This document shows, one piece after another, positions 1,403 to 49,251 of a stretch of DNA of 64,000 nucleotides (the stretch's first letter is position 1; every line of letters starts with the position of its first letter). The DNA is from Marinagarivorans sp. GTDB lineage: Bacteria > Pseudomonadota > Gammaproteobacteria > Pseudomonadales > Cellvibrionaceae. The DNA is taken from contig JAXMGD010000003.1 in NCBI GenBank assembly GCA_046347475.1, positions 453,242 to 517,241 of the forward strand, written 5' to 3'. The notes beneath the pieces were generated by a model, which made no database searches, was not told the origin of the DNA, and worked only from the letters and a program-made list of their open reading frames with translations. The position numbers and the translations under genes are program-made.

Positions 1403-4400
1403 ATGAAAAATATTTTTGTACCGGCCGCAGTACTGGGCTCGTTGTTATTAACCGGCTGCACTGGGCAGCAGAGCGAAAAACCCCCCGCTACGACACCACC
1501 GGTTACATCACCGCCTGTGACCAACAGCCGCATTAAAATCAACTCCATCACGTTTAAAGACGAATCCGTTGCCTACTACATGCGGGTGATTTCGGCGGGC
1601 AACCCTGATATGTATGCCGATGAGGTGACCTATCTTGCGCTTGATAAGGCAACTGATTTGAGCTGGTTACCCTATTTCAGCCAATTAAAAGTCTTAACGG
1701 TGAGCGGGCAGGTGCACGATAGGGTTGATTTAGCTTCTAACCCTCTGCTGGAAACGCTCGATATAAAAGCCGATTCATTATTGCTGAGCCACAATAATCG
1801 CCTGCGTGAATTAACCGCCCAGGTGAGCCATATTGAACTGCCCAGCACCGCCGCTCTTACAGTGCTGAATTTAACCCATAGCCCTGTCATCGGGCCGCAA
1901 AGTAAAGAGCTTTACCGCAGTAATAAAAACCCACTGTTGGCCAACCATTTAAAATTGGATTTAAGCCGCCAGCCAAAACTGCAACAATTGTATCTATCCG
2001 GTTCCTTTGAAGAAGTTATTTTGCCTAGCACTAGTGTGTTGGAGTATCTAACTATAAAGGGTTCTGCTACGGCACGTCTTAATGGTCTCGCCCAGCAGGC
2101 CGCTTTGAAAAGACTTGATGTGGTGTTAGATAAAAACCTGCAGGAGGTTGATGTAAGCGGGCTTAAACGGCTGGAATATCTCGCTTTAAAGGCCGATGGC
2201 ATACACAGTCTCGATATTAGTGCACTGCCTCAACTGGATGTGCTGGAGATCAATGGAGATAATTTCAGCCAGCTTGCCAGCAATACATCGCAGCCGTCCT
2301 TACATCATCTGCGCTTGATGGCACCCAAGATTTATTCGTTGGATTTAAACCCCTACCAGAATTTAAATACGTTTTTTTACGCCGACGGTGACTTAGCGCA
2401 TTTAAATGCTTCGCTGCCTAATCTTACTGATATCACTATCGGTAACGCCCCATTGGTAACGCTTAAAACAGGCAGTTGCAGTGCGTTGGCACACGTGGAA
2501 ATCGGCTATAACCTGCTGGATCAACTGGATTTAAGCCAGTGCAAATCCTTGACCGAAGCCTTTATTTTGCCCAGCACCGCGCGCACGGAGGATGTATTAA
2601 ATACACAATTAAAATTGCCCCAAGGTGTTGAGCGCGTCCTTTCTGCTGAGGCGCGGCTTCGCATCAGTGCGCTGACTCAAGAGCACATTCCCGATGCGCG
2701 TTTGTTAGCCTGTGCGCAGGCCGCAGGCAAGGCTGAAAATGCCCTCTACGTGCAGCAGTTAAAAAACATCACCTGCCGGGGCGAGAATAGCAAAGCCTAT
2801 TATCAAGCGTTTGCCAGTTTGCAAGAGGGGCGCGCCGACCCGCTCGTTAACAACTATATATTCGACCTAACTGGCCTCTCATTATTTACCGGCCTGCAAA
2901 ACTTGGATCTGGGCACTAATTGGATTAGCCAGCTGAATTTAAATGGCCTGAATAAACTTAAACGCCTGGTGGCCGACGGCAATATTATTCAGGACGCCGA
3001 CTTTTCTAATCCCGTTTTGCAGCAGGTGGATTTAAGCTCGAACCCACTGGTTCGAGTGGTTCTGCCTGAGGGGCTTGAGCAATTTAAAGCGGCTGCAGGC
3101 ATCAACTCTAATGCCTATGTCTCCTATATATTGGGTAATTATGGGCTTGATATTCTGCGCCGTGGGCCAGAGGGCAAGCTTTTATCTGTCGATGATTTTA
3201 GTAAAAAATTAAATGCGGCTGGCTGGCCTGTGTCGCTGACCGATATTCAAAGCAACCGCGTAACCTGGCCGAGTATCTCTTTGCCTGGCGCCCAGCGCCT
3301 GCGCTTTGCCGATGTGAATATTGAGGATAAAAACCTTAAGGACTGTATTCAGGAGGATTTCGTTTACGCCGATGAGGTGAAGTCTTTAAGTTGCCAAATT
3401 CGTGGAGGCCTGGGGGGCTATGTTATTCGCTCCTTTAAGGGCCTTGAGCAGCTCAGTAATTTAGAAGACGCTTTTCTTTATGGTCTTGATCTGCGCGCGG
3501 CGGATTTAAGCCCACTGAAAAACCTTAAAAAATTAACTATTGGTGATAGCCAAATAGGCGAGTTGAACTTTGGTCACTTGCCTGCGCTGGAGGAATTCTC
3601 CTTAAATAATTTTGGCGTCGTATCATCGCCTAATTTAACACTCGATCTTGCGCAGAATACCTATCTGCGGCGTTTAAATGCATCAGGCATTGGCCAGATT
3701 AAATTGCCCGAGTCCGACAGCCTGGAGTTTTTAACGCTGCGAACCGCGCATGATTCAATTTCGACGGATAATAAATATCCAGACCTGGATCTTTCTCACT
3801 ACACACACTTATACAAAGTAGACATAGACAATCGAGTGGGTGTGCTCACATTGCCTGCCAGCTCTAAATTAGATTCGCTCTCATGTTTTCGCTGTAAACC
3901 CCAACAATTGCTCAACCTGAATCAACAAGAGCGCTTGACCAAGCTCTCTTTTACAGCCCCCTCCGAATGGACTCAACTGGACTTAGCGAACCTGCCTCGC
4001 CTAAACAGCCTGAATCTTGAAGCGCCAAACCTGCAAGGCCTTAACCTTGCTGAAAACCTGCGCTTAAGTGAGTTAATTTTAAATGCGCCGCAGTTAACCC
4101 AGCTGCGCACACCGGCAGTAAGCGGCCTGACAGGTGTGCAATTAACCGCCCCCAAACTGACGCAATTGAATACAGCGGCCATGCCTAAATTGCTGAATCT
4201 CACAGTGAATGAACATGGTTTTAAACAACTGGATCTGTCAGCGTCTAGCCAATTAAAGCAATTGCAATTGGGAGATGGCATGCTGCAGTTATTAACCTTG
4301 GGTGACAATCGCCACCTTGCGGATGTGAATATAGGTGCAGGTAAAATTAAAGCCCTGGATTTTTCTCGCTTAAGCGCATTAAAAAATCTGCGCATCGGCC

Positions 4401-5182
4401 GCAACCCCTTGCAGAGTTTAGATTTACAGGCCAACACGGCATTAATGTCGCTCAGCTATACCGAACCGGCCCCTGCAAATATGCAGCTTCCCACCCTGGA
4501 TTTTGATTTGCCGGTAATCATTGAGCCTGCGGTTAAAAAAATACAGGAATTAACCCAAGCAGATGTGCCGGATGAACTATTGCGCAAGTGCATAATGTCT
4601 ACGGCATTAAAACAGGGCATCGAATTTGTGGATGAATTAACTGAGTTGTCCTGCAGAGGGCTTGATAGCAAGGACCGTACGGTTGCTATGAGCCACTATG
4701 CCAGTGGCGAGAGCCTTAAAGGTTATGCTTGTTGTATCTTCGACCTCAAAGGCCTACGGTTTTTTTACAATCTTAGAACCATCGATTTCACCGGTAATTG
4801 GATTAGCAATGTTTTATTTGAGGACATAAATCTGCCTAAACTTAACTCTCTGAATTTGGATCACAACGCTATTCAAACTCTGGCATTACTTCCTCAGCGA
4901 GGGTTTGGAGGCAGCATTTTCACCCGCTCGATTCGCAACCTCAGTCTTAATGCCAACCCCCTAAGCCATTTGATATTGCCATTTGAATTGCAGTATTTAG
5001 CGGCCTCTGCAGGGGATGACTGGATTTATACCCAAGCAGTCATTGCCTCACAATATAAAAAAGAGCCTATGTTAGATTGGGTCACGCGCTCGCCTCTTAC
5101 AATGAATGAGTACAAAAGACCATTTACGGTAGATTTTTATGGTGAAATGCTCTTTATTGATTCACCTAAATATGCCCGCTGA
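1403..5182 (+). CDS. Large leucine-rich-repeat (LRR) lipoprotein, 1259 aa
   Basis: Signal peptide with lipobox LLLTGC. Dozens of LxxLxLxxNxIxxL units along the whole protein (e.g. LQNLDLGTNWISQLNLNGLNKLKRLVADGNII). Has its own intrinsic terminator. Confidence 0.85.
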   Translation: MKNIFVPAAVLGSLLLTGCTGQQSEKPPATTPPVTSPPVTNSRIKINSITFKDESVAYYMRVISAGNPDMYADEVTYLALDKATDLSWLPYFSQLKVLTVSGQVHDRVDLASNPLLETLDIKADSLLLSHNNRLRELTAQVSHIELPSTAALTVLNLTHSPVIGPQSKELYRSNKNPLLANHLKLDLSRQPKLQQLYLSGSFEEVILPSTSVLEYLTIKGSATARLNGLAQQAALKRLDVVLDKNLQEVDVSGLKRLEYLALKADGIHSLDISALPQLDVLEINGDNFSQLASNTSQPSLHHLRLMAPKIYSLDLNPYQNLNTFFYADGDLAHLNASLPNLTDITIGNAPLVTLKTGSCSALAHVEIGYNLLDQLDLSQCKSLTEAFILPSTARTEDVLNTQLKLPQGVERVLSAEARLRISALTQEHIPDARLLACAQAAGKAENALYVQQLKNITCRGENSKAYYQAFASLQEGRADPLVNNYIFDLTGLSLFTGLQNLDLGTNWISQLNLNGLNKLKRLVADGNIIQDADFSNPVLQQVDLSSNPLVRVVLPEGLEQFKAAAGINSNAYVSYILGNYGLDILRRGPEGKLLSVDDFSKKLNAAGWPVSLTDIQSNRVTWPSISLPGAQRLRFADVNIEDKNLKDCIQEDFVYADEVKSLSCQIRGGLGGYVIRSFKGLEQLSNLEDAFLYGLDLRAADLSPLKNLKKLTIGDSQIGELNFGHLPALEEFSLNNFGVVSSPNLTLDLAQNTYLRRLNASGIGQIKLPESDSLEFLTLRTAHDSISTDNKYPDLDLSHYTHLYKVDIDNRVGVLTLPASSKLDSLSCFRCKPQQLLNLNQQERLTKLSFTAPSEWTQLDLANLPRLNSLNLEAPNLQGLNLAENLRLSELILNAPQLTQLRTPAVSGLTGVQLTAPKLTQLNTAAMPKLLNLTVNEHGFKQLDLSASSQLKQLQLGDGMLQLLTLGDNRHLADVNIGAGKIKALDFSRLSALKNLRIGRNPLQSLDLQANTALMSLSYTEPAPANMQLPTLDFDLPVIIEPAVKKIQELTQADVPDELLRKCIMSTALKQGIEFVDELTELSCRGLDSKDRTVAMSHYASGESLKGYACCIFDLKGLRFFYNLRTIDFTGNWISNVLFEDINLPKLNSLNLDHNAIQTLALLPQRGFGGSIFTRSIRNLSLNANPLSHLILPFELQYLAASAGDDWIYTQAVIASQYKKEPMLDWVTRSPLTMNEYKRPFTVDFYGEMLFIDSPKYAR

Positions 5183-5447: not shown

Positions 5448-6647
5448 TTAAGAAATAGGTTTTACCTTCCAAGCCACCCACATACCGACCAAGGTCAGCC
5501 CACAACTGATATACCCCACCCAATCGTAATGCACCAAGCGGCCCGCCTCGTCGCTGGTCATGATGTAGCCTGCCAGCATGGCGGCAAGGCCGGAGCCTAG
5601 GTTCATCACCGCCGAATTAAACGACATCACCCGGCCGCGATATTGCGGCGTGCAGCTGGCGGTGACCATGGCGGAGCAGGGGATGTAGCGGCCGGAGACA
5701 AAAACAAAAAATAAACCTGCCACCAAAAGCTGGTAGGCCAGGCCCAAAGGCAAGCTTTGGGAGACCAGCACTATGGGCAAAAGGCTTACGGCCATGAGTA
5801 CATTTAACACCAGAGCGTGGCGGTGGCGGTCGGTGATGCGGCCAATCAATGGCCGAGTAACCAGAGTGAGCGCGCCGCCGAGTAGGTAGATATAGGGCAA
5901 TTGGCTATGGCTTAAACCCGCGTTGGATACCAGTGACGGCGCTATGTAGGGGATGGTCATAAAGCCCGCCAGCATCACCATAAACGAGGTGGCAAAAGCC
6001 CAGAGGTGGTTGGCGTTACTCAACAAGCCCCGATAACTTTGCAGCAGGTTTTCGTGTTGGGCGGCTATATGCTCAGTAAGGCTCGGCACCCACACCCAGC
6101 AGCCCACAAATACCACACAGGCAACCGCCGCCACCGCAATAAACGGCGCTTGCCAGGCGAAGTGATCGGCAATCCAGATTCCGGCGGGCACACCGGCCAC
6201 GCTCGCTAAGGAAAACGCCAGCATTACCACACCCATGGCGCGGCCGCGCCGCTCAAATGGAACCACATCGCCCACTATAGCCATCACTATGGAAGTGGCC
6301 ACGCCACCAAATAGGCCCGCCAAGCAGCGCGCTACCAGCATTAAGAGGTGATTGGGCGCCAGGGCGCAGGCGGCGGTGGCGAGGATAAGGCCGCCGTAGC
6401 TGATGAGCAAAACTCTGCGCCGGTCGTAGCGGTCGAGAATGGCCGATGCCACCAGGGCGGTAATCCCGGCTGTTAGGGAGTAGGCGGAGATTAACAGGCC
6501 AAACTGCCCGGTGCTGATATCAAACACCGCCATCAGTTGGGCTGAGAGGGGCATCATGATCATAAAATCAAGGATGTTGGTGAACTGGGCTGCCATCAAG
6601 GTGAGCAGGAGCAGCTGTTCGCGGCGGGGGCTTAAAGCCTGGGGCAT
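5448..6647 (-). CDS. MFS transporter
   Basis: 399 aa with 12 predicted TM helices and typical MFS loop motifs (DRYDRRRVLL). Confidence 0.85.
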   Translation of the reverse strand: MPQALSPRREQLLLLTLMAAQFTNILDFMIMMPLSAQLMAVFDISTGQFGLLISAYSLTAGITALVASAILDRYDRRRVLLISYGGLILATAACALAPNHLLMLVARCLAGLFGGVATSIVMAIVGDVVPFERRGRAMGVVMLAFSLASVAGVPAGIWIADHFAWQAPFIAVAAVACVVFVGCWVWVPSLTEHIAAQHENLLQSYRGLLSNANHLWAFATSFMVMLAGFMTIPYIAPSLVSNAGLSHSQLPYIYLLGGALTLVTRPLIGRITDRHRHALVLNVLMAVSLLPIVLVSQSLPLGLAYQLLVAGLFFVFVSGRYIPCSAMVTASCTPQYRGRVMSFNSAVMNLGSGLAAMLAGYIMTSDEAGRLVHYDWVGYISCGLTLVGMWVAWKVKPIS

Positions 6648-7079
6648 AGAGAAAAACCTGGGGTAGGAATTATAGGGTTGGTGGCAGCAAGGGGTTTTGG
6701 GGTTTGAATGTACGCCTGCGCCGGTGTGGCAGGATGCTATAGCCTGCCGCTGGGTTTGTCAGAAATTTCTGGCTTGTTTTAACCGTCAAAGACCCGTCAG
6801 ACGTTTCGGTAGGAGCCTGTAAATCAGCCGCCGTGACGGCCCGTTGTCAGCTGCAACCTATTGAAAAATATAGGCCTTTCCATTTATCCGGCGGCTTTGC
6901 CGCCTGTCGCAGTCTGCTGGCCTTAGGGCCTAAAACTCCGCATACGCCGCCAATGCTGCAAAGCGGTGATTTCTCTAGCCCCTCGGCCAATCACCCCTAT
7001 CACTATGGACAATTTCGCACACGAAGAAGCGTTCGTAGCGACTAAACGCCCCTGCAAATTTGAACCATACTGTCTTCAA

Positions 7080-8075
7080 GTTGAGGCGCTAAGGAATGAG
7101 GCGTTTGCAAACCTAAGGAAAGGGTTATTAGGGTTTAAGAGCCGGATAGAGTTACCAAGGAATAAGTTACCAAGGAGTAACCAAAAGGATTGTTTAAGGA
7201 GCGCGCTGGAGAGTAGCAAGGATCGGCACACGGGAGCGAACTAAAACAGGGAGCCGCTTTTGGGAGGATACAAGGATTTAATTGGGAGCCAGTAAAGGGA
7301 TTAACCCTGGGAGAGAAGAGGGAAGGGCTTAGCGGGGCTAAGCCTGTAACAGGAACACCCACAAGGACGCACGCACAGGAACACAGACAAAGGACTAGGG
7401 CATAAGGAGCACCTACTGTCGCAGGAGGAATAGGAAGGGAGTTGAATAAAGGATAAATACTGGGAGTACACAAAGGATCAAACTGAGAAGGCAATAGGGA
7501 CGGCGGTACACAACAGCATGGTAATGGACACAGCGCCCCTGGCGCAGTGCGTGGAAGGGAGCTGCGCATTAAGGAGCACGAGTAGGTGCAGTGAGGGCAT
7601 ACAAGGAGCCGAAACGGATGGGGGTTATGGATTGCTGCAGGATGAGAGCTGATGGAATGGGGTTTAAACGGAGTACCGAAGGATCAATCCTGTGGAAACA
7701 GGTTTAAGGACGCATGAGAAACCAAGGATACTCACTAAAGGAATGTCACCAAGGGACATTGATAGATGGAGCTGGCAGGAACCGCGTTGGAGTACGCAGC
7801 AAGCCTGAGGAGCGGGCTGCCGGTACAGATTGATTAGGGACCTTCGTGTATCAGGGACATACAGGTATCAGGGACATACAGGTATCAGGGACATAATAGG
7901 AGCCAGACAACAGGAAACTACGGGGCCCGCTAGGCTGTTTGCTTGCCGCAGCGGAACAATTTGGCACCTCTCCAACGGAATGGCCTATCAAGCAAACTCA
8001 TAAGCAAAATGGCGATACATGACTGATTCAATTCGGCTGGCCCTAAATACACAGTATTTGGGGCTTCGTTTTTTT
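7080..8075 (+). ncRNA. Candidate CsrB/RsmZ-family CsrA-sequestering sRNA (unusually long, GGA-motif-rich)
   Basis: No long ORF in any frame. Extreme purine bias on the + strand only. About 60 GGA motifs, many in AAGGA / CAAGGA(N) context. Tandem 15-bp units gttaccaaggaNtaa x2 (7150-7179) and 17-bp units gtatcagggacatacag x3 (7847-7897). Ends in a strong intrinsic terminator at 8040-8075. Confidence 0.45.
8040..8075 (+). terminator. Rho-independent terminator
   Basis: 11-bp stem gccctaaatac / gtatttggggc with loop aca, followed by ttcgttttttt. Confidence 0.75.
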
Positions 8076-8084
8076 AGGTCTGGC

Positions 8085-9406
8085 GAGAGTGTAAACCAGA
8101 TTGTGTAACCGCCCATTGTTGAATAGGGTTTGGCGACCCGCCAAATAAGAGGCAACACAATGGACACCAACACACTGAAAACCCTCGCGCAAGAGCTGGC
8201 CAAAGGGATAAAAACCCCATCTGACCTCAATGCCTTCAGCGCACAACTGACCAAAATGGTGGTAGAAGCCGCGCTGAATGCTGAATTGACTGAACACCTA
8301 GGCTACCCCGCCCACGCCAAAGAAGGGCGCAACGGGGGCAATAGTCGCAATGGCAGCACCCCGAAGAAGCTCAAGGGCGACCACGGCGAAATAATCATCA
8401 ATACGCCCCGTGACCGCGACGGCAGCTTTGAACCGCTGTTAATTAAAAAAGGTCAAACGCGTTTTACGTCCATGGATGAACAAATTCTCAGTCTCTATGC
8501 TCGGGGTATGAGCACACGCGATATTGTGGCTGCATTTCAGGAAATGTACGGCGCTGAGGTTTCGGCGGGGCTGATATCCAAAGTGACCAACGCAGTATTG
8601 GAGCAGGTTGTTCAATGGCAAAATCGACCGCTGGAGGCGGTTTACCCCATCCTGTATTTAGATTGCATCCACATCAAAATTCGCCACGACAAGCGCGTGA
8701 TCAACAAAGCGATGTATTTAGCCTTGGGCGTTAATCTACAGGGTCAAAAAGAATTATTAGGCCTGTGGGTGTCTGAAAATGAAGACGCCAAATTTTGGCT
8801 TCAGGTGCTTACAGAGCTTAAAAATCGCGGGGTTGAACAGATTTTAATTGCCTGTGTCGACGGCCTGACGGGGTTCCCGGCGGCAATCAATGCTGCTTAT
8901 CCCGATGCACGCATTCAGCTGTGTATTATTCATATGACACGCAATTCTTTAAAATATGTATCCTGGAAAGACTATCGGGCGGTGACGGGCGATTTAAAGA
9001 AAATATATCAATCAACCACTGAGGCGGAGGCGTTAATGGAGCTGGATAATTTTGCTAGAACCTGGGATGAAAAGTATCCGCACATAAGCCAATCCTGGCG
9101 AAATCACTGGCCCAACTTGATTACGCTCTTTAATTTTCCTGCCGATATTCGCAAGGTGATCTATACCACGAATGCGATCGAATCGTTAAATAGCGTTATT
9201 CGCAAGGCGGTAAAAACACGCAAACTCTTTCCGAGTGACGAATCGGCTACCAAGGTGATATTTCTTGCTATCCAGGCAGCTTCTAAGAAATGGACCATGC
9301 CGATACGTAACTGGAAAGAGGCTATGAATCACTTTATCATCGAATTTGAGCCGCAGTTAAGGGCTCATATTTAGGCGGGTGGTTACACAGAATGGTTTAC
9401 AGTCTC
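8085..9406 (+). mobile_element. IS256-family insertion sequence, intact
   Basis: Left inverted repeat gagagtgtaaaccagattgtgtaaccgccc. Right inverted repeat (reverse complement) gagactgtaaaccattctgtgtaaccaccc. Element about 1.32 kb, flanked by 8-bp direct repeats GGTCTGGC (8077-8084 and 9407-9414). Confidence 0.85.
8130..9374 (+). CDS. IS256-family (Mutator-like) DDE transposase
   Basis: 414 aa with motifs YLDCIHIKIR and LCIIHMTRNS typical of the Transposase_mut family. True start may be the internal Met (MDTNTLK). Confidence 0.85.
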   Translation: MATRQIRGNTMDTNTLKTLAQELAKGIKTPSDLNAFSAQLTKMVVEAALNAELTEHLGYPAHAKEGRNGGNSRNGSTPKKLKGDHGEIIINTPRDRDGSFEPLLIKKGQTRFTSMDEQILSLYARGMSTRDIVAAFQEMYGAEVSAGLISKVTNAVLEQVVQWQNRPLEAVYPILYLDCIHIKIRHDKRVINKAMYLALGVNLQGQKELLGLWVSENEDAKFWLQVLTELKNRGVEQILIACVDGLTGFPAAINAAYPDARIQLCIIHMTRNSLKYVSWKDYRAVTGDLKKIYQSTTEAEALMELDNFARTWDEKYPHISQSWRNHWPNLITLFNFPADIRKVIYTTNAIESLNSVIRKAVKTRKLFPSDESATKVIFLAIQAASKKWTMPIRNWKEAMNHFIIEFEPQLRAHI

Positions 9407-9996
9407 GGTCTGGCATTCGGCCAGTAGCTCCCCGCTGAATGACGCTGCCTCCTTTTGGGGCTTAAACGAATCCTCTTGGGCGTAATAAACGCTTGGGGGC
9501 GCAGGGTTCACCGCCCACTTAAGTTAAGTGAATCATTAGCCTGCTCCAGTAAATCCGCATTGCGGTTCCCATCTCGCTGGATGTTATTGCCAATCCAGCG
9601 GCTCAGTCTGCAACGGGTATACGCCTTGCTCAACACGCAGCATTTTTAACCCCGCCCATAGCGCAGGATTGACTTGGTTGAACTTAAGAAGGAGCAGCTA
9701 GCTTGTGCGCTGCTCATCCATTCACTATCAACGCACTTGCCCCTTCAGCCAATGGCCTCTCCCACCGCCACTTTTGTTGCTGATGCCTCATCAATACAGG
9801 TTTCTGTTCTGCGTGGAGAGGGGGAATGCTTCGGTCAAAGGCCATTTAGCCTGCTAAGCTTTGGAGAGGCTTGCGCCTGAGTGTTTCGGAAAAATGCCAA
9901 GAAAATCACGTCATTAAAAGCCTGTGGCCAATTTCCGGCCAACGGGTAGTAACTGTGTTATAACTTAGCGAAAAATAACAGCATAAGGGTCTGTTC

Positions 9997-11394
9997 ATGG
10001 CCAAACGCCGCGTACTGATAGTTGATGACTCCAAAACGGCCCAGGTACGCCTGCGCAAAATGCTTGAACGCTTCGATGTTGACGTTGATACGGTCAATTC
10101 GGCTGAAGAAGCCCTGGGGTATCTATCCTATCGTCAACCCAGCGTGATATTTCTGGATCACCACATGGAAGGCATGGATGGTTTGGCGGCGTTAAAAATT
10201 ATTAAAGCCAACCCCGGTACCGCGCTGATTCCGGTGATTATGTACACCTCCGAGCAGGGCGATGTGTATGTAGGCCAGGCGCGGGCCTTGGGGGCTTTGG
10301 ATATTATTTCCAAAGAAGTGATTAAACAGGTGGATTTAGAAAAGCTCATGGGCAGCTTGAATATCTACCTGATCGGCGCGGAGCCACCCGAGGATGAGCA
10401 GGCGCCCCACGCTACCACCCTCGATATAGTGGCTGACTTAGACGAGATGCCCATAGCGCCCGCCGCCAGCCTAGACGATTTACCCCCCGCCAATGATTTA
10501 GCCCGTGTGCAGTTACAAATTGGCCGCCTGTTTGAAATCCACATCGCCAAGGTGCGCCAGGAGATTGAAGACAGCACCAAGTTTTTGATGCGCAGGCTGT
10601 CTAAAGAAATTCAGGAGCGCGCGGCCAAACCCTATGTGCGCCCGGTTACTCCGGTGGCCAACCCTTCGAATGAGCCGCTGCCACCGATTGAGGTGGAAAC
10701 CGATAAAGAGCGCGGCATCTCCACCTTTATCCTCGCCTTGGTGCTGCTGGGTGTGGCGTTTTTGGGGTATCACCTCTACATCAACAATGCGCATTTGCAG
10801 ATGATTGCTGAGAAATACGATGTGTTACAGCAGCAAAACGCCAAGCAAGAAGCCCTCATTAACCGCTTGTTTGAACAGAGTGTGCGCGCCAAAAGCGACC
10901 CAGAATTAGACACTAATATGATGTTGGAAACTCTCAGCTGGGCCTCCAACATGAATAACCAAGTGGCGTTTGGCGAGCAGGCGCTTAACGACCAGCGCAT
11001 TTACCCGGTGGGGGAATTGGTCGGCGTGTTAAAAGCTGCTAATTTTGCGGGCACTGTGTATTTGGATATTCACCTGGGTAACTTCTGCGTGGTGGAAGAC
11101 CCCAGCGGGCGTTACATCTTGCCCGAGCCTGAGAGCAATATTGAAGACTGTGTGTTCCTGGCGGACAAACAACCGCAAGTGCCCCTGGATAGCCATATAT
11201 CGGTGGGATTTTTAAATTATGTTCACTCGGCGCCGGTGCTGACAGAAGGGCCGATTGAGCTGGAGTTCTCCATGCAGGGCTACAGCCAACCTAAGGCCAG
11301 TTACCCGCCTAAAACCTCCGGCACCAGCGCGGGGGATTGGAATGAAGCGGCGCGTAAGAATAATCGGGTGAGTTTTTCTTTTGCGCGCAAATAA
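9997..11394 (+). CDS. Response-regulator receiver protein with a predicted TM helix and an uncharacterised C-terminal domain
   Basis: N-terminal REC domain (RVLIVDDSKTAQ, phospho-acceptor Asp region IFLDHHM). One hydrophobic helix (ISTFILALVLLGVAFLGYHLYI). About 200 aa C-terminal region with no recognisable fold. Confidence 0.7.
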   Translation: MAKRRVLIVDDSKTAQVRLRKMLERFDVDVDTVNSAEEALGYLSYRQPSVIFLDHHMEGMDGLAALKIIKANPGTALIPVIMYTSEQGDVYVGQARALGALDIISKEVIKQVDLEKLMGSLNIYLIGAEPPEDEQAPHATTLDIVADLDEMPIAPAASLDDLPPANDLARVQLQIGRLFEIHIAKVRQEIEDSTKFLMRRLSKEIQERAAKPYVRPVTPVANPSNEPLPPIEVETDKERGISTFILALVLLGVAFLGYHLYINNAHLQMIAEKYDVLQQQNAKQEALINRLFEQSVRAKSDPELDTNMMLETLSWASNMNNQVAFGEQALNDQRIYPVGELVGVLKAANFAGTVYLDIHLGNFCVVEDPSGRYILPEPESNIEDCVFLADKQPQVPLDSHISVGFLNYVHSAPVLTEGPIELEFSMQGYSQPKASYPPKTSGTSAGDWNEAARKNNRVSFSFARK

Positions 11395-27817: not shown

Positions 27818-29419
27818 CTACTGGGTTTTTAGGCTAGAGAGGATCTGTCCAAAACCTAAGCCGAACTTGGCCAGATATTGTTTAAGCCGGTGGCTATCGT
27901 TACTGGAGGCTTTTTGCGTGCGGCTGGCGTTAAATAATGTGCGGCCGGCTTGCGCGAGGCTCACACTGCTTAAACATACTTCCACTACGGCATTTAATTG
28001 CAAGCGGTCAAATAAATCCATGGCGGCGAGGGTTTCATCATCGAGTAAATTTTTTAGATGATCCCTGTGGGAGGGCTGGTTTTGAAAACCACTCCAAGCC
28101 TGTTTTAGGCGGCTAATTTCACCGCTGACTATGTCCTCGCTAATTCGCCCGCCGCTGGCTAAGGTGGCCATGCGCGTAATGCTGGAGTTTAAATCGCGAA
28201 AATTTGCTCGCCACAGAGCTTCAGGCGAGTTGGCAAACTGTAAATACAGGCTGCGGGCTGCGCGATTAAAACTAACTTTGTACCCGGCCGCTTGGGTAAA
28301 TTTAGCCAGTTCATGCTCTAAGTTGGGTTCTAAATCTTCGATGCGCTCTTTTAACGAGGGCAGCCTGTAGGTCCATAAATTAATGCGGGCTAATAAATCT
28401 TCGCGAAATAATCCGTGCCGCACCTGTTCAAATAAATCCCGGTGGGTGCCAGCAATCAGTTGAAAATTGCTGTGTACGGCTTTATCGCTGCCAAGGGGTA
28501 TAAAGGTTTTTTCTTCCACGGCCCGCAATAACATGGCCTGTTCATCAAGGCCCAACTCGGCGATTTCATCGAGAAATAACAAGCCTTTGTCCGCTTCCCG
28601 CAACAGGCCGCTGCGAGCGTTCGCAGCTCCGGTAAAAGCGCCTTTTACATGGCCGAAGAGAGCGCTCATGGCGTTATCACCCCGCAGGGTAGCGCAGTTC
28701 ACCTCAATTAAAGGGCCGCTTAATTGGCCGCGCTGGTGTTTTAATTCATAAATGCGCCGCGCCAATTGGGATTTGCCCGCGCCCGTGGGGCCATTTAATA
28801 AAATCGGCGCGCGGGATTTTATGGACACCTGCTCAATTTGTGCGATAAGCGCATTAAATTCAGCGTTGCGGGTGTGAATACCATTTTTTAAATGGGTGAG
28901 GGCGTCTTGAGTTTCTTTGGCAAAGCGCGAGGCGATTTGATCATAGCGGGAGAGATCCAAATCGATAATCTGGTAGCTGCCTTGGGTGCCTTCTTTACTG
29001 GGCGAAGCCTGAATTAATTTACCCGGCAGGTAATGCGCTTCGGTTAATAAATACAAACAAATTTGTACCACATGGGTACCGGTAGTGATGTTAATAAAAT
29101 ACTGGTTGCGCTCCACATCAAACGCATAGTTGCGGGCTACATCGTGCAGGGCGCCGTACACCTGCTCAAAATCCCATGCATCGGCCACGTCTATAGGCAC
29201 GGCTGTTACCTGGGTGTTGGGCGCAACGCTTGCCATATCCGCAAGGGTTACGCGCAGCAGGGCCTCATCCCCCGGCATATACAGCAACAGATATTCACTA
29301 ATTATCAGCTGCGGGTGCATAAGTAGGGCGAGGCTCGGCCGCCAGCGATCCCAGCGTTTTTTACCCAGCCCACCGTGGTCCAGGCGAGAGCCTAGAATGC
29401 CAATCAATACATTATTCAT
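27818..29419 (-). CDS. rtcR: RtcR, sigma-54-dependent transcriptional activator with N-terminal CARF domain
   Basis: N-terminus MNNVLIGILGSRLDHGGLGKKRWDRWRPSLALL matches the RtcR CARF domain. AAA+ sigma-54 interaction domain (GPTGAGKS, GAFTGA). Divergent from rtcB. Confidence 0.85.
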   Translation of the reverse strand: MNNVLIGILGSRLDHGGLGKKRWDRWRPSLALLMHPQLIISEYLLLYMPGDEALLRVTLADMASVAPNTQVTAVPIDVADAWDFEQVYGALHDVARNYAFDVERNQYFINITTGTHVVQICLYLLTEAHYLPGKLIQASPSKEGTQGSYQIIDLDLSRYDQIASRFAKETQDALTHLKNGIHTRNAEFNALIAQIEQVSIKSRAPILLNGPTGAGKSQLARRIYELKHQRGQLSGPLIEVNCATLRGDNAMSALFGHVKGAFTGAANARSGLLREADKGLLFLDEIAELGLDEQAMLLRAVEEKTFIPLGSDKAVHSNFQLIAGTHRDLFEQVRHGLFREDLLARINLWTYRLPSLKERIEDLEPNLEHELAKFTQAAGYKVSFNRAARSLYLQFANSPEALWRANFRDLNSSITRMATLASGGRISEDIVSGEISRLKQAWSGFQNQPSHRDHLKNLLDDETLAAMDLFDRLQLNAVVEVCLSSVSLAQAGRTLFNASRTQKASSNDSHRLKQYLAKFGLGFGQILSSLKTQ

Positions 29420-29556: not shown

Positions 29557-29572
29557 TTGGCAACGGCCTTGC
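29557..29572 (+). promoter_or_regulatory. Sigma-54 (-24/-12) promoter for rtcB
   Basis: TTGGCAACGGCCTTGC is TGGCA-N6-TTGC with exact GG-N10-GC spacing, about 90 nt upstream of the rtcB start codon. Confidence 0.75.
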
Positions 29573-29661
29573 TATTAAGGGTTTATCTGGAGCATCGATC
29601 CAGCCAACACAAGGCGCAATGCCAACAGGCTGAGCGCTTATATAGATTCAAGGTGGAACCC

Positions 29662-30885
29662 ATGACGAACTATGAAGTAATGCATCAACCCGGACAGGTA
29701 CCGGTTAAGGCCTGGACAAAAGGAGTGGCGTTTGACGATAACGCCCGTAAACAAATCAACAACATGGCCAGCATGCCGTTTATTCATAAATGGATTGCCG
29801 TAATGCCCGATGTGCACTTGGGAAAGGGGGCCACTATCGGCAGCGTAATTCCCACTGTGGGGGCAATAATTCCTGCGGCCGTGGGTGTGGATTTAGGCTG
29901 CGGCATGATGGCGGTAAAAACCAGTTTAAACGCGGCGCAATTGCCGGATTCGCTGCAGAATTTGCGCGCTGATATTGAAAAAAATGTACCCCATGGCTCA
30001 AGCCCAACTACCCGTGGCAAGCGTGATACCGGAAGCTGGTTTAACGCCCCGGAAGACGTAATAAATGCCTGGGCGGGATTGGATGCAGGGTTTATTGCGC
30101 TGTGTGAGAAACACCCATTTTTAAAAAATACCAACAATAAAAATCATTTGGGAACTTTGGGATCGGGCAACCATTTTATTGAGGTGTGTGTGGATGAAGA
30201 AAATAGCGTGTGGGTGATGTTGCATAGTGGTTCACGCGGGGTGGGAAACCGTATTGGTACCCATTTTATTGAGCAGGCGAAAAAAGATATGGAGCGTTGG
30301 TTTATTCAATTGCCCGATAGGGATTTAGCCTATATTCCTGAGGGAAGTGAAACATTCAAAGATTATGTAGCGGCCGTGGCCTGGGCGCAGGATTTTGCCC
30401 GCGCCAATCGTGAAGTGATGATGGTGCGGGCTTTAAATGCCTTGCAGCGCAATGTGCCGGTGCCGTTTACCGCGCATTTAGAGGCGGTAAATTGCCACCA
30501 TAATTACATCAGCCGCGAGCACCACTATGGCGAAAATGTCTGGGTAACCCGTAAAGGTGCTGTGCGTGCCGGTGCAGGGGAAATGGGAATTATCCCCGGC
30601 AGCATGGGGGCTAAGTCTTTTATTGTGCGCGGCCTGGGTAATGCGGAGAGTTTTTGCAGCTGTAGCCACGGCGCAGGAAGAATTATGTCGCGCACCGAGG
30701 CAAAAAAACGTGTGTCTATGCAGGAGCATGAATTAGCTACCGCTGGTGTGGAATGCCGTAAGGATGCCAATGTAATCGACGAGACGCCTTCTGCTTATAA
30801 GCCTATAGATGCTGTGATGCAGGCGCAGGCGGATTTGGTGGAAATTGTTCACACACTTAAACAAGTGGTGTGTGTTAAAGGTTAA
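29662..30885 (+). CDS. rtcB: RNA-splicing ligase RtcB (3'-phosphate/5'-hydroxyl RNA ligase)
   Basis: MTNYEVMHQPGQVPVKAWTKGV...MPFIHKWIAVMPDVHLGKGATIGSVIPT closely matches E. coli RtcB. RBS AAGGTGGA lies 7 nt upstream of 29662. The track ORF start at 29557 is an in-frame extension across the promoter. No rtcA follows. Confidence 0.9.
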   Translation: MTNYEVMHQPGQVPVKAWTKGVAFDDNARKQINNMASMPFIHKWIAVMPDVHLGKGATIGSVIPTVGAIIPAAVGVDLGCGMMAVKTSLNAAQLPDSLQNLRADIEKNVPHGSSPTTRGKRDTGSWFNAPEDVINAWAGLDAGFIALCEKHPFLKNTNNKNHLGTLGSGNHFIEVCVDEENSVWVMLHSGSRGVGNRIGTHFIEQAKKDMERWFIQLPDRDLAYIPEGSETFKDYVAAVAWAQDFARANREVMMVRALNALQRNVPVPFTAHLEAVNCHHNYISREHHYGENVWVTRKGAVRAGAGEMGIIPGSMGAKSFIVRGLGNAESFCSCSHGAGRIMSRTEAKKRVSMQEHELATAGVECRKDANVIDETPSAYKPIDAVMQAQADLVEIVHTLKQVVCVKG

Positions 30886-31050: not shown

Positions 31051-31112
31051 GCCCCCGTAGCTCAGTCTGGTAGAGCACATTGAGGTCGCAGGTTCGAATC
31101 CTGTCGGGGGCG
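31051..31112 (+). ncRNA. tRNA-like element lacking an anticodon arm (candidate Y RNA-type tRNA mimic)
   Basis: Acceptor GCCCCCG/CGGGGGC, D-arm GCTC-AGTCTGGTA-GAGC, then only CATTG where the 17-nt anticodon arm should be. Variable loop AGGTC, T-arm GCAGG-TTCGAAT-CCTGT. 62 nt. Lies 165 nt downstream of rtcB on the same strand. Confidence 0.5.
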
Positions 31113-31113
31113 C

Positions 31114-31187
31114 AATGCTATAGCTCATCCTGGTAGAGCATCTCACTCATAATGAGACGGTAGCCGGTTCGAATCCGACTAGCAATT
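31114..31187 (+). tRNA. tRNA-Met(CAT)-like gene, possibly degenerate; directly abuts the preceding tRNA-like element
   Basis: Clover-leaf with anticodon stem TCTCA/TGAGA and loop CTCATAA, D-arm GCTC-ATCCTGGTA-GAGC, T-loop TTCGAAT. One mismatch each in the acceptor (A2-A71) and T stems. No encoded CCA. Only 1 nt separates it from the upstream element. Confidence 0.5.
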
Positions 31188-45016: not shown

Positions 45017-47557
45017 TTAAATTCCTAAACCAGTGGATGAAGGCGCCAGGCAAGCGGCGACAAAGGTCGAGCGCAGCGAATTGCTGGCGTTAGCGCCTGA
45101 TGCCAGTGCTGCCGTGTTATGGGCTTTTAAAATGCTTACGGCGCGGGCGTGTTTTGGATCCGCAGGCGGCAGTGCCATCAGCGTGCTCACCATATCCTCA
45201 AGCGCCAGCGCAACATTGCTGCTGCTAAATACTTTGTATTGGCTGCCATCTACCACTAGGTTAGCCGCCGCCTCACACAGCAACTCACTGGCGCTGCGGT
45301 AAAAAATAGTCGGGTCTGCTGCGGTGACCGGTTCGGCCACACCTCGGCTAAACGCATCGGCGGGCAGCGCACCGGCCAAGCGCCCGATACTGCTTTTCTC
45401 TTCAATTAACGGCAGCGCTATTTGGCAAAGGTCGGCCACTTTTAGACGGTTGGACAGCGCCTGACAAAGCTGCTGGCGGCGCACGATACTAATGGTAATT
45501 CCCTGATTGGCCGTGGTTTGCGTACTGCTGCTGCCGGTCACTAAGGGAGAGGTGAATAGATCAATGAGTAAGGATTTAAAATCAAAATTAGCATCGGCAA
45601 AGGCTTTGGCGATCTCGCGCATCTGCGGGTCGGTTTCATCACAACCACTGGAATTGGCGAAGAAACATAATTTCTGCGTCATTTCCAGCGCAAAGCGATT
45701 AATTTTATCGCCCTGCACACTCTCGTCACTCACCTGCTTAATAAATTGGCCAAATTCCAACAGTGATTTTCCATTGCCTGCTACGTCGCCAAAACCAAAA
45801 CTCGGTTGCGCGCCGGAGCCTGCGGCATTACCTGTTTTTGGTTTGTCATTGTCGTTGTACCAGTTTTTAAAGAACTGGCGCATGGGGTCCAAACTCTTGT
45901 GGCAGGCAAAGCACTCTGAGGTGGATACCGCATGGGTGCCATCGACTGCGGCTGTATTGGGCGGTACTGGAATACTCTGTGCGGCGCTGGTAAAACCCTG
46001 CCCGAGCGCCACTAATAATGCCTGATTAACCGTAACGCGATGGGAATTACTGTCGTTGGTATTCCACACACCTAAAAATGCGGGGGTAGTGAAATAACTA
46101 ATACGCGGCGCTACTGAAGGGAGTGTATTGCCCGATGCGCGCAATTTAATTAATTCCCAGGGTTCTATGCGCGTGCCGCGCACTATTTTCACCATTTTCC
46201 AATCGCTTAAATCCTGCGGAGTAAAATAGGGTTTAGTGGCCCGCTCCCAACAGGGCGTATCGCTCATGCCTGGGCCTGTGCCTGTGTCCCTATCCACACT
46301 GCCGAGCAACACATGGAATAAATAAACGTTGCCAGGGAATTGTGCTTCTAAGCTGGAATCACCGTTGCAATTATCGGTAAATTTGCGATCGGCCGTGATG
46401 GTTGTAGGCGCCTCGTAACCGAATACCATGTAATCGGGGCTATTGGGGTTGAGCGTATCGGCCAAGGCCGGGCGACGGCCATAGTTGTAGCGCCATTTCA
46501 TAACATTGGCATTTGAAGCGGTATCGTAATTGGCCTCAATTTGCATATAGAGGCTCTTTAATGCCGTAGTCATCATAAATTCGTCGGTGGTGAGCAGATC
46601 CGCGAAGGAGCGGCCATCTTTGACAAACTGCAGTGCTGTGCGCGCAAAACTCTCCTTCATATTTTTAAATAACATGGGGAAAGCACTGTCACCGTAAATA
46701 CCATAGGGCAAATTAAATGCACCCGGGCGATCGCGTAATTGGCTTTTAAAATCCTCTACTGAAAGCGACGACTGCTGAAACGTATTGGCAAAATAAAACA
46801 GCATTTTTTCGTCAAATTCCGGTGTATTCATCCATTCGCCAATTAAGGTGCGCAGCGCATCCGGTGAGGTACCCTTAGCTAATTCTGCATCCGTGGGCGC
46901 AAGGCCTGTCAGTACATTTTTAATTTTGCGCAGTGCGCTGGCTGCAGGTAAGGGTGCGTCGAACTGACTGCTGCCGGGGTTGTTAGTATTTAAATAATTA
47001 GCGCGGATAAACGCAGTAATTGCCTTGGCACAATTACTATCACAGGCGCCCACATTGCCCTTGGGCATATTGGTCAGGATGAAATCGCTCAGGGCAGCAT
47101 CGGTTACGAATTTTGCGGCATTAATTTTAAATTGGCCCTGACCGTCGGCGCCGGCGATGCTGCTGGAATCGTGGCATGTAGCGCATAACTGCTGATATTT
47201 TCCTTGGCCTACTGTTGCCAAATTACCTGAGCTGGATGAGCTTGAACTAGAACTGCTAGAGCTAGAAGATTTTCCTGAACTGGAGCTGGAGCTGGAGCTG
47301 GAGCTGGAGCTGGAGCTGGAGCTGGAGCTGGAGCTGGAGCTGGAACTTTTGCCCGAGCTAGAGCTGGATGCCTTTCCTGAGCTTGAACTGCTGGAACTAG
47401 AACTGGAGGCTCTGCCACTACTTGATGAGGTGCTGGACGAAGTCCCTCCAATCCCTGAGCTAGAAGAGCCCGACGAGCTAGAGGCGGGATCAGTACCACT
47501 GCAGGCAGCCACGAGGCTCGACAGCAGCAGGCAAATTGCCAAGGAATGTATGCGCAT
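45017..47557 (-). CDS. Lipoprotein with poly-Ser linker, c-type cytochrome motif (CATCH) and a large DUF1549/DUF1553 (or DUF1800)-like domain; tentative family
   Basis: Lipobox LVAACSG. About 90 aa of Ser/Gly linker. CxxCH heme motif with a downstream Met (TNMPKG). About 650-aa C-terminal domain containing ECFACHKSLDP. Translationally coupled to the DUF1501-like gene. Confidence 0.55.
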   Translation of the reverse strand: MRIHSLAICLLLSSLVAACSGTDPASSSSGSSSSGIGGTSSSTSSSSGRASSSSSSSSSSGKASSSSSGKSSSSSSSSSSSSSSSSSSSSSSSSGKSSSSSSSSSSSSSSGNLATVGQGKYQQLCATCHDSSSIAGADGQGQFKINAAKFVTDAALSDFILTNMPKGNVGACDSNCAKAITAFIRANYLNTNNPGSSQFDAPLPAASALRKIKNVLTGLAPTDAELAKGTSPDALRTLIGEWMNTPEFDEKMLFYFANTFQQSSLSVEDFKSQLRDRPGAFNLPYGIYGDSAFPMLFKNMKESFARTALQFVKDGRSFADLLTTDEFMMTTALKSLYMQIEANYDTASNANVMKWRYNYGRRPALADTLNPNSPDYMVFGYEAPTTITADRKFTDNCNGDSSLEAQFPGNVYLFHVLLGSVDRDTGTGPGMSDTPCWERATKPYFTPQDLSDWKMVKIVRGTRIEPWELIKLRASGNTLPSVAPRISYFTTPAFLGVWNTNDSNSHRVTVNQALLVALGQGFTSAAQSIPVPPNTAAVDGTHAVSTSECFACHKSLDPMRQFFKNWYNDNDKPKTGNAAGSGAQPSFGFGDVAGNGKSLLEFGQFIKQVSDESVQGDKINRFALEMTQKLCFFANSSGCDETDPQMREIAKAFADANFDFKSLLIDLFTSPLVTGSSSTQTTANQGITISIVRRQQLCQALSNRLKVADLCQIALPLIEEKSSIGRLAGALPADAFSRGVAEPVTAADPTIFYRSASELLCEAAANLVVDGSQYKVFSSSNVALALEDMVSTLMALPPADPKHARAVSILKAHNTAALASGANASNSLRSTFVAACLAPSSTGLGI

Positions 47558-47988
47558 AGGTAACCTTATAGAACTGGGAGATAAGTACCAGGAAGGAGCG
47601 AGTAGAGTATTAATACTGAAGTCTAATCAAATTCCAAATAGTCCAGCGTGACTGGGCGCGTGTTTTGCGGTGTCTTCTGTGGACGCCAGTTTAGCTGAGT
47701 GTGGGAGTGTGACTTGAGTGGCAATTGGCGCAAAACCAATAGCAAAAACTGCGGTGAAATCGAGGTGGTGTTAGCTTAAGACCAGGCGCTTTACCCTGCT
47801 TACACTCGCGGCTGATGGAGCGCAGCGTAAGAATTATGGTATTGAGGTGACTGAAAAGAGAATCGGTTGAGGCTTGCCGCATTTAAATGGGGGTTTGAAA
47901 AAATAATGATACACCTGGCAAGAAGGAAAAACCTCGTTGCAGATAGCCTTCTGCAACGAGGTGTAATGAGTGCATTTAAATGTTTAGA

Positions 47989-49251
47989 CTAATTCCAAAA
48001 CTGCTGAGCTTGTCGCCCCAATTTCTGCTGGCCAGTGGTGTTGGCGTGGCAGGTGTCGGTGCGATCTGAGCTAGTTAAAGGCCCAAAAGCACCTGGATAC
48101 ACCACATTTAAACTGGTATCAGCCGCCGCTTGTTTAGCCATGCTGTCGGTTTTTTCCGGGCCGCCGGCACCGGCTAAATCACAGGTTAAACCCGACGCAT
48201 ACAGGGGCTGGCCAGTAATATAGATCTTGGCGCCGGGTGCCGCGTGGGAGCGAGCATTGGTGATGAGTTTTTTCACTTCATCGTAGGTCACGCCGTTTTG
48301 GGCAAAAATACAAATCATGATCCACACCTCTGAAGGCTTACCGAATTTGGCCACTTGCTGATCAAATTTGCCCCAGGCGGCTGAGGTATTGCTGGTCCAG
48401 TTTTGCACTACATCACCATTAGTGCCATAGGGCGCCCACATCTTTTTGCCGCCCACGGCGCGATACCCAGTTGCGGTATTTTCAGCCATAGAACAGCCAA
48501 TAAATCCCATAGTATCGTTGCCACCGGTTGTTGGCGGAGGCGGTGGTGGCGTAGTGGTGGTATCTAATTTTCCGTCAGCAGAATAAATGCTGAAGCCGCT
48601 AATAGTGGCGTTATCAACTAGGCTTTCTAACGCAATAGTAAGTTTACCGTCGGTGACACGCACATTTTTAACTTCATAAGAATAAGCACCGTTGCGACCG
48701 GCCAATGTATATAAATCCACGTTGGCTAATTCCGTTTTGCCTTCCACTGCAACGTTAAATGAGCGCTTGCCCGCCGAGGTTTGATAAATTTCGGCAAACT
48801 GTAACCGCACGCGATAGGTGCCTGTGGTAACCGGCACATCGTAGGAAAAAGTGCCGTAGCGTTCGGTTTGATACACGGCCGTTTCACTGCCGCCGGTAAT
48901 CGATTCTGTTGTACTGCTGGTATTACCGCCGGAGAAATATTGGTCGGCAAGATAATTTATATCCCCATAGGTTTGCGCTGTGCCGCCGGCATTTATGGCT
49001 ACAACTAATTTTTCATTGGTGTTAGCGCCGCTGGACGAACTGGATGAAGAGCTCGACGACGAGCTAGAAGAGCTAGTAGAACTCGAGGAGCTAGAAGAGC
49101 TGGATGACGATGAGCTAGACGAGGACGAGCTTGATGAAGAGCTGGAGCTAGACGAGCTTTGGCCGCCGCAGCCGCTTATGAGGGAGGCTACAACCATCAA
49201 CCAACCACACGCCAAGCGATGGGACAGCCAGGGAGATATCTGCGTATTCAT
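47989..49251 (-). CDS. Lipoprotein with poly-Ser linker, malectin-like carbohydrate-binding domain, and an uncharacterised C-terminal domain
   Basis: Lipobox LISGCGG. Malectin signature YRVRLQFAEIY...KRSFNVAVEG. T/P-rich second linker (TTTPPPPPPTTGG). Confidence 0.7.
   Translation of the reverse strand: MNTQISPWLSHRLACGWLMVVASLISGCGGQSSSSSSSSSSSSSSSSSSSSSSSSSSSTSSSSSSSSSSSSSSSGANTNEKLVVAINAGGTAQTYGDINYLADQYFSGGNTSSTTESITGGSETAVYQTERYGTFSYDVPVTTGTYRVRLQFAEIYQTSAGKRSFNVAVEGKTELANVDLYTLAGRNGAYSYEVKNVRVTDGKLTIALESLVDNATISGFSIYSADGKLDTTTTPPPPPPTTGGNDTMGFIGCSMAENTATGYRAVGGKKMWAPYGTNGDVVQNWTSNTSAAWGKFDQQVAKFGKPSEVWIMICIFAQNGVTYDEVKKLITNARSHAAPGAKIYITGQPLYASGLTCDLAGAGGPEKTDSMAKQAAADTSLNVVYPGAFGPLTSSDRTDTCHANTTGQQKLGRQAQQFWN

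Follow-up and report, generated by a model that had tools for sequence, protein, structure and literature searches.

A conserved kilobase-long RNA gene built of GGA repeats in freshwater Cellvibrionaceae, a probable sponge of the Csr/Rsm type

This article concerns a locus of Marinagarivorans sp. that lies in a 64,000-nucleotide stretch of contig JAXMGD010000003.1 (positions 453,242 to 517,241), called the window throughout. On the plus strand, between a divergent MFS transporter gene and an insertion sequence of the IS256 family, it carries what we hold with high confidence, from sequence analysis and conservation, to be a real non-coding RNA gene that is conserved and forms a single unit, and this locus most likely encodes a Csr/Rsm-type sponge for the regulator CsrA. 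The predicted RNA would work like CsrB, yet it appears to stand outside every described sequence family. In Gammaproteobacteria a global post-transcriptional regulator is controlled mainly through Csr/Rsm sponges; those described so far have lengths of about 110-480 nt and present roughly 5 to 25 GGA sites. The RNA proposed here would be novel in two respects: it would be 2-3 times larger than the CsrB type in both length and site number, and it would show its sites without hairpins.

The motif content of the region is exceptional within the window. Between 7080 and 7920 (841 nt, 66% purine) the plus strand holds 57 GGA triplets and a single TCC, which is to say one GGA on the opposite strand. 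The preliminary description of this DNA, which had spoken of roughly 60 GGA at about four times the random expectation and of no such bias on the complementary strand, was right in both respects, the excess over uniform expectation being ~4.3-fold. The A(N)GGA context that it had noted was likewise recovered: AGGA occurs 30 times, ANGGA 36 times, AAGGA 19 times and CAAGGA 7 times, and neither AGGA nor ANGGA is found on the opposite strand. With 5.4 times the mean of the window (10.6 per 841 nt, standard deviation 5.8), the GGA count is the global maximum of the 64 kb. Measured against its own composition the excess is only 1.9-fold (2000 mononucleotide shuffles, mean 30.7, maximum 49), and against dinucleotide shuffles it is 1.7-fold (35.0 +/- 4.0, z 6.1); all 2000 shuffles of the first kind and all 500 of the second were exceeded. 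The whole predicted transcript (7078-8076) contains 59 GGA and 2 TCC, with A at -1 or -2 in 48 of the 59 GGA. Second in GGA density on the plus strand of the window comes the interval 46900-47990 (26-27 per 841 nt), which lies inside an 846-aa open reading frame (ORF) of the minus strand (45017-47557) and is thus probably a matter of codon and amino-acid bias.

The flanking proteins assign the window to a Marinagarivorans sp. metagenome-assembled genome of the Cellvibrionaceae, the response regulator encoded further downstream being 100% identical to an NCBI entry under this name. When relatives were fetched by way of the MFS transporter and of this response regulator, the same element was found in eight distinct genomes: that of the window, L102, L110, L002, L096, L097, L003 and L104 (L098, a near-identical strain of L097, was not counted as distinct). 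The carriers are freshwater Cellvibrionaceae or Marinagarivorans-like genomes. In 7 of the 8 the element is located upstream of the MFS gene and divergent from it; L104 has it at a different locus, beside a MAPEG gene, with the same -10 block and the same terminator. From predicted start to terminator the homolog RNAs measure 734-1274 nt and contain 39-74 GGA and 0-5 TCC, so that the GGA density across the family is one per 17-20 nt. GGA exceeded the dinucleotide shuffles in all seven homologs tested (z 5.4-7.5); L110 was counted and not shuffled.

Comparison of these homologs revealed what is maintained in the body of the RNA. Between the window and L102, whose neighbouring protein is 93% identical, the body is 63% identical, 15 of the 21 indels are not multiples of three, and only 33 GGA stand in shared columns while the totals are 59 and 74. 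A body that changes so fast, with frame-breaking indels and with GGA totals that are kept, points to a non-coding sequence in which the density of the motif is maintained and not the sequence itself. Across the family no 5-mer is more over-represented than AAGGA (174 observed, 35.2 expected, z 23); AGGA was counted 251 times against 88 expected, and AAAGGA, AAGGAT and TAAGGA are further words at the top of the list. GGGG, AAGA and AGAA are depleted, thus the bias is not simple purine richness. The homolog RNAs are 64-68% purine. Of the GGA sites, 66% have A at -2 and 56% have it at -1 (background 37%), which is the A(N)GGA/ARGGA core of CsrA sites. G is not preferred at +3, and this speaks against a mimic of the Shine-Dalgarno sequence. 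In the body, UCC falls 2.2-fold short of expectation (13 observed vs 28.8 +/- 5.1), and the predicted probability of being unpaired is 0.60-0.68 for GGA vs 0.33-0.38 for other G. A global minimum-free-energy fold of the 1-kb RNA served paired/unpaired statistics only and not the description of structure.

The motifs are also regularly placed. The nearest-neighbour spacing of GGA peaks at 13 nt and pair distances peak again near 26, 40 and 53, and these repeated peaks indicate a quasi-periodic array. The tandem 15-bp and 17-bp units of the preliminary description were both found (2.1 and 2.8 copies, Table 1), and its suggestion that the RNA grows by duplicating GGA-bearing units was strengthened by the relatives: each homolog carries short tandem arrays of its own, made of 12-17-nt units that contain a single GGA, and between the near-identical L097 and L098 the difference is exactly one 13-nt unit. 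It follows that the array grows and shrinks by slippage of such units.

In order to place the RNA among known sponges, E. coli CsrB, with its sequence verified against 5426 genomes, was run through the same scripts as a control. CsrB measures 369 nt and has 22 GGA, the window RNA 995 nt and 59 GGA; there is one GGA per 16.8 and 16.9 nt, respectively, the median spacing is 14 in both, and the A/C/G/T composition is.30/.18/.33/.18 for CsrB and.32/.19/.32/.18 for the window RNA. The new RNAs share further features with CsrB (RF00018) and with the CsrB-like RNAs of Vibrio and Pseudoalteromonas (Pf1): they are intergenic, stand-alone and purine-rich, they end at an intrinsic terminator, A or R precedes the GGA, and the GGAs are preferentially unpaired, composition, density and spacing being nearly equal. 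One difference is that of size, and here the preliminary description, which had called the RNA far larger than the described sponges, is borne out by the whole family. Its members have 734-1274 nt, whereas CsrB has 369 and the Vibrio RNAs about 420 (CsrB1 and CsrB2, 416 and 420 nt with 21 motifs; PMC1488887), and they carry 39-74 GGA, whereas the motif counts are 22 for CsrB, 14 for CsrC and 25, 21 and 9 for Pseudoalteromonas Pf1-3 (PMC11882849). The local motif also differs, being (A/U)AAGGA(U/A) in the new family and CAGGA(U/A/C)G in CsrB.

With RsmX, RsmY and RsmZ (RF00166, RF00195, RF02144) the new RNA has in common the taxonomic neighbourhood, a conserved terminator and a first GGA in the loop of a 5' hairpin just after the start site. 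As in rsmX/Y, a conserved element is located upstream, here at ~65 bp; the upstream activating sequence for GacA in rsmX/Y lies about -70. On the other hand, the new RNA is six to ten times longer, with ~ten times more sites, its upstream element agrees with TGTAAGN6CTTACA in no more than 7-8 of 12 positions, and it does not place most of its GGAs in defined stem-loops as the Rsm RNAs do. RsmB of Pectobacterium/Erwinia, with 479 nt, is to our knowledge the largest Csr-type sponge known. It is likewise a large multi-site antagonist of CsrA/RsmA, but it has less than half the size of the new RNA, is enterobacterial and is homologous to CsrB. In the literature no Csr small RNA (sRNA) was found reported for Cellvibrionaceae/Cellvibrionales, and no sponge of this size.

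Five properties have been listed by which sRNAs that regulate CsrA can be recognized (Kulkarni et al. 2006, PMC1488887), of which three are present here outright and one in part. The gene is intergenic (flanked on one side by the divergent MFS gene and on the other by IS256 or the response regulator, with no conserved ORF), its concentration of AGGA/ARGGA is high, and it ends at a Rho-independent terminator. The GGAs are free, being unpaired in a sequence depleted of UCC, but unlike those of CsrB they are not gathered in loops. As for a conserved UvrY/GacA site upstream, there are five conserved blocks, in which the best match (7-8/12) stands at chance level. Furthermore, two sites can be bridged by a single CsrA dimer when 10-63 nt separate them (PMC7652899), and the GGA spacing of 10-17 nt is inside this range.

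In the mechanism that we propose, a stand-alone non-coding RNA gene of ~1.0 kb on the plus strand (0.73-1.27 kb in the relatives) would be transcribed from a conserved promoter which probably needs an activator, and transcription would stop at the conserved intrinsic terminator. The body would form a quasi-periodic array, with a period of ~13 nt, of 39-74 single-stranded (A/U)AAGGA(U/A) sites, and each RNA might bind many CsrA (RsmA) dimers, roughly 20-35 if a dimer bridges two neighbouring GGA. The sites would be kept accessible by composition, that is by the high purine content (64-68%) and the near absence of UCC, and not by hairpin loops, and the array grows or shrinks by slippage or duplication of single 12-17-nt units. 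That CsrA is the ligand we infer. Genes for GacS/GacA and for CsrA are present in the genomes of its relatives T. turnerae, S. degradans and C. japonicus (PMC2699552).

Several observations weigh against a CsrA sponge. The first concerns hairpin loops, in which the preliminary description had proposed to look for the GGAs. In CsrB 14 of 22 GGAs are found in short hairpin loops, where shuffles keeping the GGA positions give 8.3 +/- 2.1, whereas the window RNA has 23 of 59 (19.9 +/- 3.5), L097 14 of 60 (19.8) and L003 only 1 of 39. The expectation stands in so far as the GGAs are preferentially unpaired; unlike in CsrB, they are not enriched in short hairpin loops over the shuffles, hence the family would show its sites mainly as open, purine-rich single strand. 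Presentation in a hairpin loop increases the affinity for CsrA/RsmE and is normal for high-affinity binding (PMC7652899). Secondly, the Rfam models CsrB, CsrC, RsmY, PrrB_RsmZ and RsmX, with which a search had been recommended, had no match in the window at the gathering score or at E <= 10, and the Csr/Rsm families had none at E <= 1 in four homologs, what came up being noise; the RNA can therefore not be counted among the sequence homologues of CsrB, CsrC, RsmX, RsmY or RsmZ. Thirdly, no canonical 18-bp GacA/UvrY box is conserved upstream, and neither a match of at least 9/12 to TGTAAGN6CTTACA nor a conserved palindrome was detected upstream in any homolog. The best match, at the upstream block D (Table 1), is 8/12 in L097 and 7/12 in the window, and equal chance matches occur elsewhere. 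Additionally, searches of the 64-kb window by tblastn with CsrA, Hfq and GacA gave no csrA, hfq or gacA orthologue, only generic receiver-domain matches.

The last point of this kind is the distribution: by neighbour-gene walks and one over-strict metagenome scan, the family was found only in a narrow, freshwater clade. There is no such RNA next to MFS homologs at <=62% identity (L099-L101), nor within 6-10 kb of response-regulator homologs at <=60% identity (L105-L109, among them Saccharophagus sp. K07 as L105/L106, M. cellulosilyticus as L107 and M. algicola as L108). The scan of metagenome DNA with AACCATACTGTNNTCANGTTG returned 14 chance matches, mostly of one unrelated repeat and none of them GGA-rich; this pattern is too strict, since it misses even L104, which reads ...TCAGTCGAG.

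Part of these observations would be expected if the locus were a real non-coding RNA gene with a ligand other than CsrA, either another RNA-binding protein or, for an RNA acting as scaffold or decoy, for example 30S subunits bound via the anti-Shine-Dalgarno sequence, or pyrimidine-rich sRNAs. GGAs that stand mostly in unstructured, purine-rich RNA and lack the loop enrichment of CsrB would suit such a ligand, as would the missing GacA/UvrY box and the missing Rfam match, and a period of ~13 nt could serve any protein with a fixed footprint. However, the selected word is A-A-GGA with no enrichment of G at +3, which is not what a mimic of AGGAGG would show, density, spacing and composition equal those of CsrB, and no other protein of Gammaproteobacteria that is specific for A(N)GGA is known to us. 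Single-stranded GGA is also bound by CsrA (PMC1488887, PMC7652899), and we consider a ligand other than CsrA unlikely.

The preliminary description had also allowed for two tandem sRNAs in place of one long RNA. The GGA density does dip at 7498-7553 and around 7810-7838, and processing into smaller RNAs is conceivable, as RsmB of Pectobacterium is processed. Nevertheless the conserved -10 block occurs once per locus, and so does the conserved terminator; in the window there is no internal terminator-like site between 7078 and 8039, and from the single -10 block together with this uninterrupted interior the locus was read as one transcription unit. Internal runs of at least five T are absent from 5 of the 7 distinct homologs, while L002 has two and L003 one. 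Two or more tandem genes are thus quite improbable, and this part of the preliminary description is not supported.

Less probable again is a CrcZ-like sponge of Hfq (and Crc), in which the A-rich tracts between the GGAs would bind the distal face of Hfq. The RNAs contain 32-44% A, with runs such as AAAAAGGAAAAA, and Cellvibrionaceae belong to the same GTDB order as Pseudomonas, where CrcZ works in this way; CrcZ and CrcY are, like the proposed RNA, protein-sponge RNAs with repeated, single-stranded, purine-rich motifs. In none of the homologs, however, do the CrcZ motif AANAANAA and (ARN)4 exceed their frequency in dinucleotide shuffles (z -1.8 to +0.9), and no copy of AANAANAA at all is found in the window RNA. 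The conserved enriched word is AAGGA, and no sigma-54 promoter is evident on reading the sequence.

The coding potential of the region was also considered. It had been described as having no ORF in any frame, which is literally incorrect, since an ORF of 144 aa runs on the minus strand (7135-7569) and several of 30-57 aa are present; what holds is that none keeps its position or frame from homolog to homolog. Pfam gave no match for the 144-aa ORF, and conservation of this ORF is lacking too, the matches in homologs being weak and falling in all three frames. The further statement that a coding explanation is unlikely was confirmed by the missing conserved ORF and by the indels, mostly not multiples of three. 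That there is no RNA gene at all, the region being a decayed low-complexity coding sequence or a purine tract acting at the DNA level (a protein-binding array or H-DNA), is the least probable alternative: it could appeal to the antisense ORF and to the fact that strand-asymmetric purine tracts can arise without transcription, but besides the frame-breaking indels it has against it that a promoter-like block and a terminator with variable loop are kept at the ends of a length-variable body, and that AAGGA specifically is enriched, not purines generally, with GGGG, AAGA and AGAA depleted.

The features of the locus are collected in Table 1. The strong intrinsic terminator that had been placed at 8040-8075 was found essentially there.

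Table 1. Features of the locus in window coordinates
Feature	Position	Strand	Basis or remark
MFS transporter gene	5448-6647	minus	divergent from the RNA
Distal conserved upstream blocks A and B	6844-6909	+	kept in seven syntenic homologs
Block C, ATGCTGCAAAGCGGTGATTTCTCTAGC	6952-6979	+	common to all homologs, partly to the non-syntenic L104
Block D, TATGGACAATTTCGCACA	7004-7021	+	candidate GacA/UvrY-type site, centre ~-65 from the predicted start
Core promoter: GCGACTAAAC, TTGAAC, -10-like CATACT (7066-7071)	7038-7071	+	predicted from conservation only
Predicted primary transcript, ~1.0 kb	7078-8076	+	start predicted, end from the terminator
5' hairpin, AAGGAAUGA in the loop	7084-7106	+	RNAalifold consensus of 5 sequences, some compensatory changes; seven-pair local stem
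GGA-repeat body, 57 GGA, modal spacing 13 nt	7093-7915	+	motif counts and spacing
15-nt tandem unit AGTTACCAAGGAATA x 2.1	7150-7180	+	second copy folds as GUUAC-CAAGGA-GUAAC
17-nt tandem unit GTATCAGGGACATACAG x 2.8	7848-7895	+	every copy a 4-5-bp hairpin, loop CAGGGAC
Conserved 3' domain (~115 nt)	7923-8038	+	alignment, 77% mean column identity
Intrinsic terminator, 12-bp stem (8039-8065), 3-nt loop, T-run to 8076	8039-8076	+	stem kept, loop variable in all eight homologs
IS256/Mutator-family insertion sequence	8084-9407	+	not part of the RNA

About 280 bp upstream of the RNA are conserved as five blocks, which end in GCGACTAAAC-N-TTGAAC-CATACT. Block A reads TTGTCA..CAACCTATTGAAA..TA and block B CC.TT..TC.GGC..TGCCG..TCG; by its resemblance, on reading, to the WATCAANNNNTTR consensus the core of block A is a candidate IHF-like site. 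The core of block C is AAG(C/T)GG(T/C)G..A(T/A)TTC(T/C)CT(A/G)G. In block D the sequence CAAT(T/G)TC(G/T)CACA is invariant in all eight homologs, L104 included (TGTGGACAATGTCTCACA in L097), and its right half, C(G/T)CACA, resembles CTTACA. The AACCATACTGT of the core promoter is invariant in all eight as well, and CATACT could plausibly be the -10. There is no good -35 hexamer upstream of CATACT, and a sigma-70 scan found no plus-strand promoter, which together suggest an activator-dependent promoter with a start near 7078; this position was taken as 7 nt past the -10-like hexamer. We infer transcription itself from this arrangement and from the terminator that sets its end, and the activator might be of the GacA/UvrY type.

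A palindrome within 6757-6774 had been put forward as loosely resembling a GacA/UvrY box. The palindrome CAGAAATTTCTG exists, at 6760-6771, but conservation is limited to TGTC.GG in the relatives, at distances of ~315 to 485 bp from the promoter. As the MFS gene has its start codon ~110 nt downstream of the palindrome, an operator or leader role for that gene is more likely than a role in the RNA promoter. The same palindrome is also a weak terminator-like hairpin on the plus strand (6-bp stem, then TTGTTTT).

At the other end of the RNA, a long-range stem of the 3' domain (7938-7945/7989-7996, UUUGCUUG/CAAGCAAA) encloses a conserved GGAAUG. Its cells are paired in 95% of cases, vs 23-56% with slid partners; covariation in the domain agrees with a stem but is not significant, the two compensatory pairs being matched by 57 of 500 shuffles (six sequences). 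The 3' domain was found in the syntenic clade and is absent from L104.

Between the MFS gene and the IS256-family element there are 1.4 kb without a credible gene. The transposase of the element belongs to Pfam PF00872 (E 5.6e-116), imperfect 31-nt inverted repeats bound it at 8084-8114 and 9377-9407, and it begins 8 nt past the RNA terminator. This copy is missing from the syntenic loci of L002, L096, L097, L102 and L110, where the response-regulator gene directly follows the RNA, thus it is a later insertion in the window. It separates the RNA from its ancestral neighbour, the response-regulator gene. The downstream neighbour of the RNA differs among the loci, being the response regulator, IS256 or other genes.

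The response regulator itself (9997-11394) consists of a receiver domain, an apparent hydrophobic membrane segment, noted on reading the translation, and a C-terminal region of ~200 aa that has no match in Pfam or NCBIfam; it is conserved across Cellvibrionaceae (Saccharophagus, Teredinibacter, Marinagarivorans). At 1403-5182 a 1259-aa protein with weak leucine-rich-repeat (internalin-like) matches only is encoded, syntenic in L096 (1262 aa). Further along, genes for RtcR (27818-29419, minus) and RtcB (29557-30885, plus) are followed by a 62-nt tRNA-like element at 31051-31112, which matches the Rfam tRNA model at 52 bits without an ARAGORN call and adjoins a normal tRNA-Met (31114-31187). This truncated tRNA-like RNA just 3' of the RtcB RNA ligase gene might be a substrate or a Y-RNA-like partner. 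In L003, 90 nt at 7995-8084 match the Rfam family mir-8489 in either orientation (E ~5e-9, short of the gathering score), presumably as a near-perfect palindrome or REP-like hairpin and not as a microRNA.

If the locus is a CsrA sponge, it would extend the known capacity of a single sponge molecule about three-fold, and it would achieve accessibility by purine richness and avoidance of UCC instead of hairpins. Such RNAs escape annotation based on Rfam as well as sRNA screens that size-select 50-500 nt, whereas a scan for GGA/UCC asymmetry finds them. It is also possible, as we suggest tentatively, that the family forms a new architectural class, in which up to 74 single-stranded AAGGA sites follow one another at a ~13-nt pitch over a kilobase ('beads-on-a-string'), an arrangement made either for a cooperative CsrA filament or for another ligand; the filament version would mean a continuous CsrA ribonucleoprotein and switch-like titration of very high capacity. 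The family would offer a natural system for studying how the number of sites, their spacing and cooperativity set the titration curve. The difference of one 13-nt unit between L097 and L098 would be sponge growth by unit duplication in progress, and with units gained and lost so rapidly the capacity of the sponge would be an evolvable, strain-specific trait.

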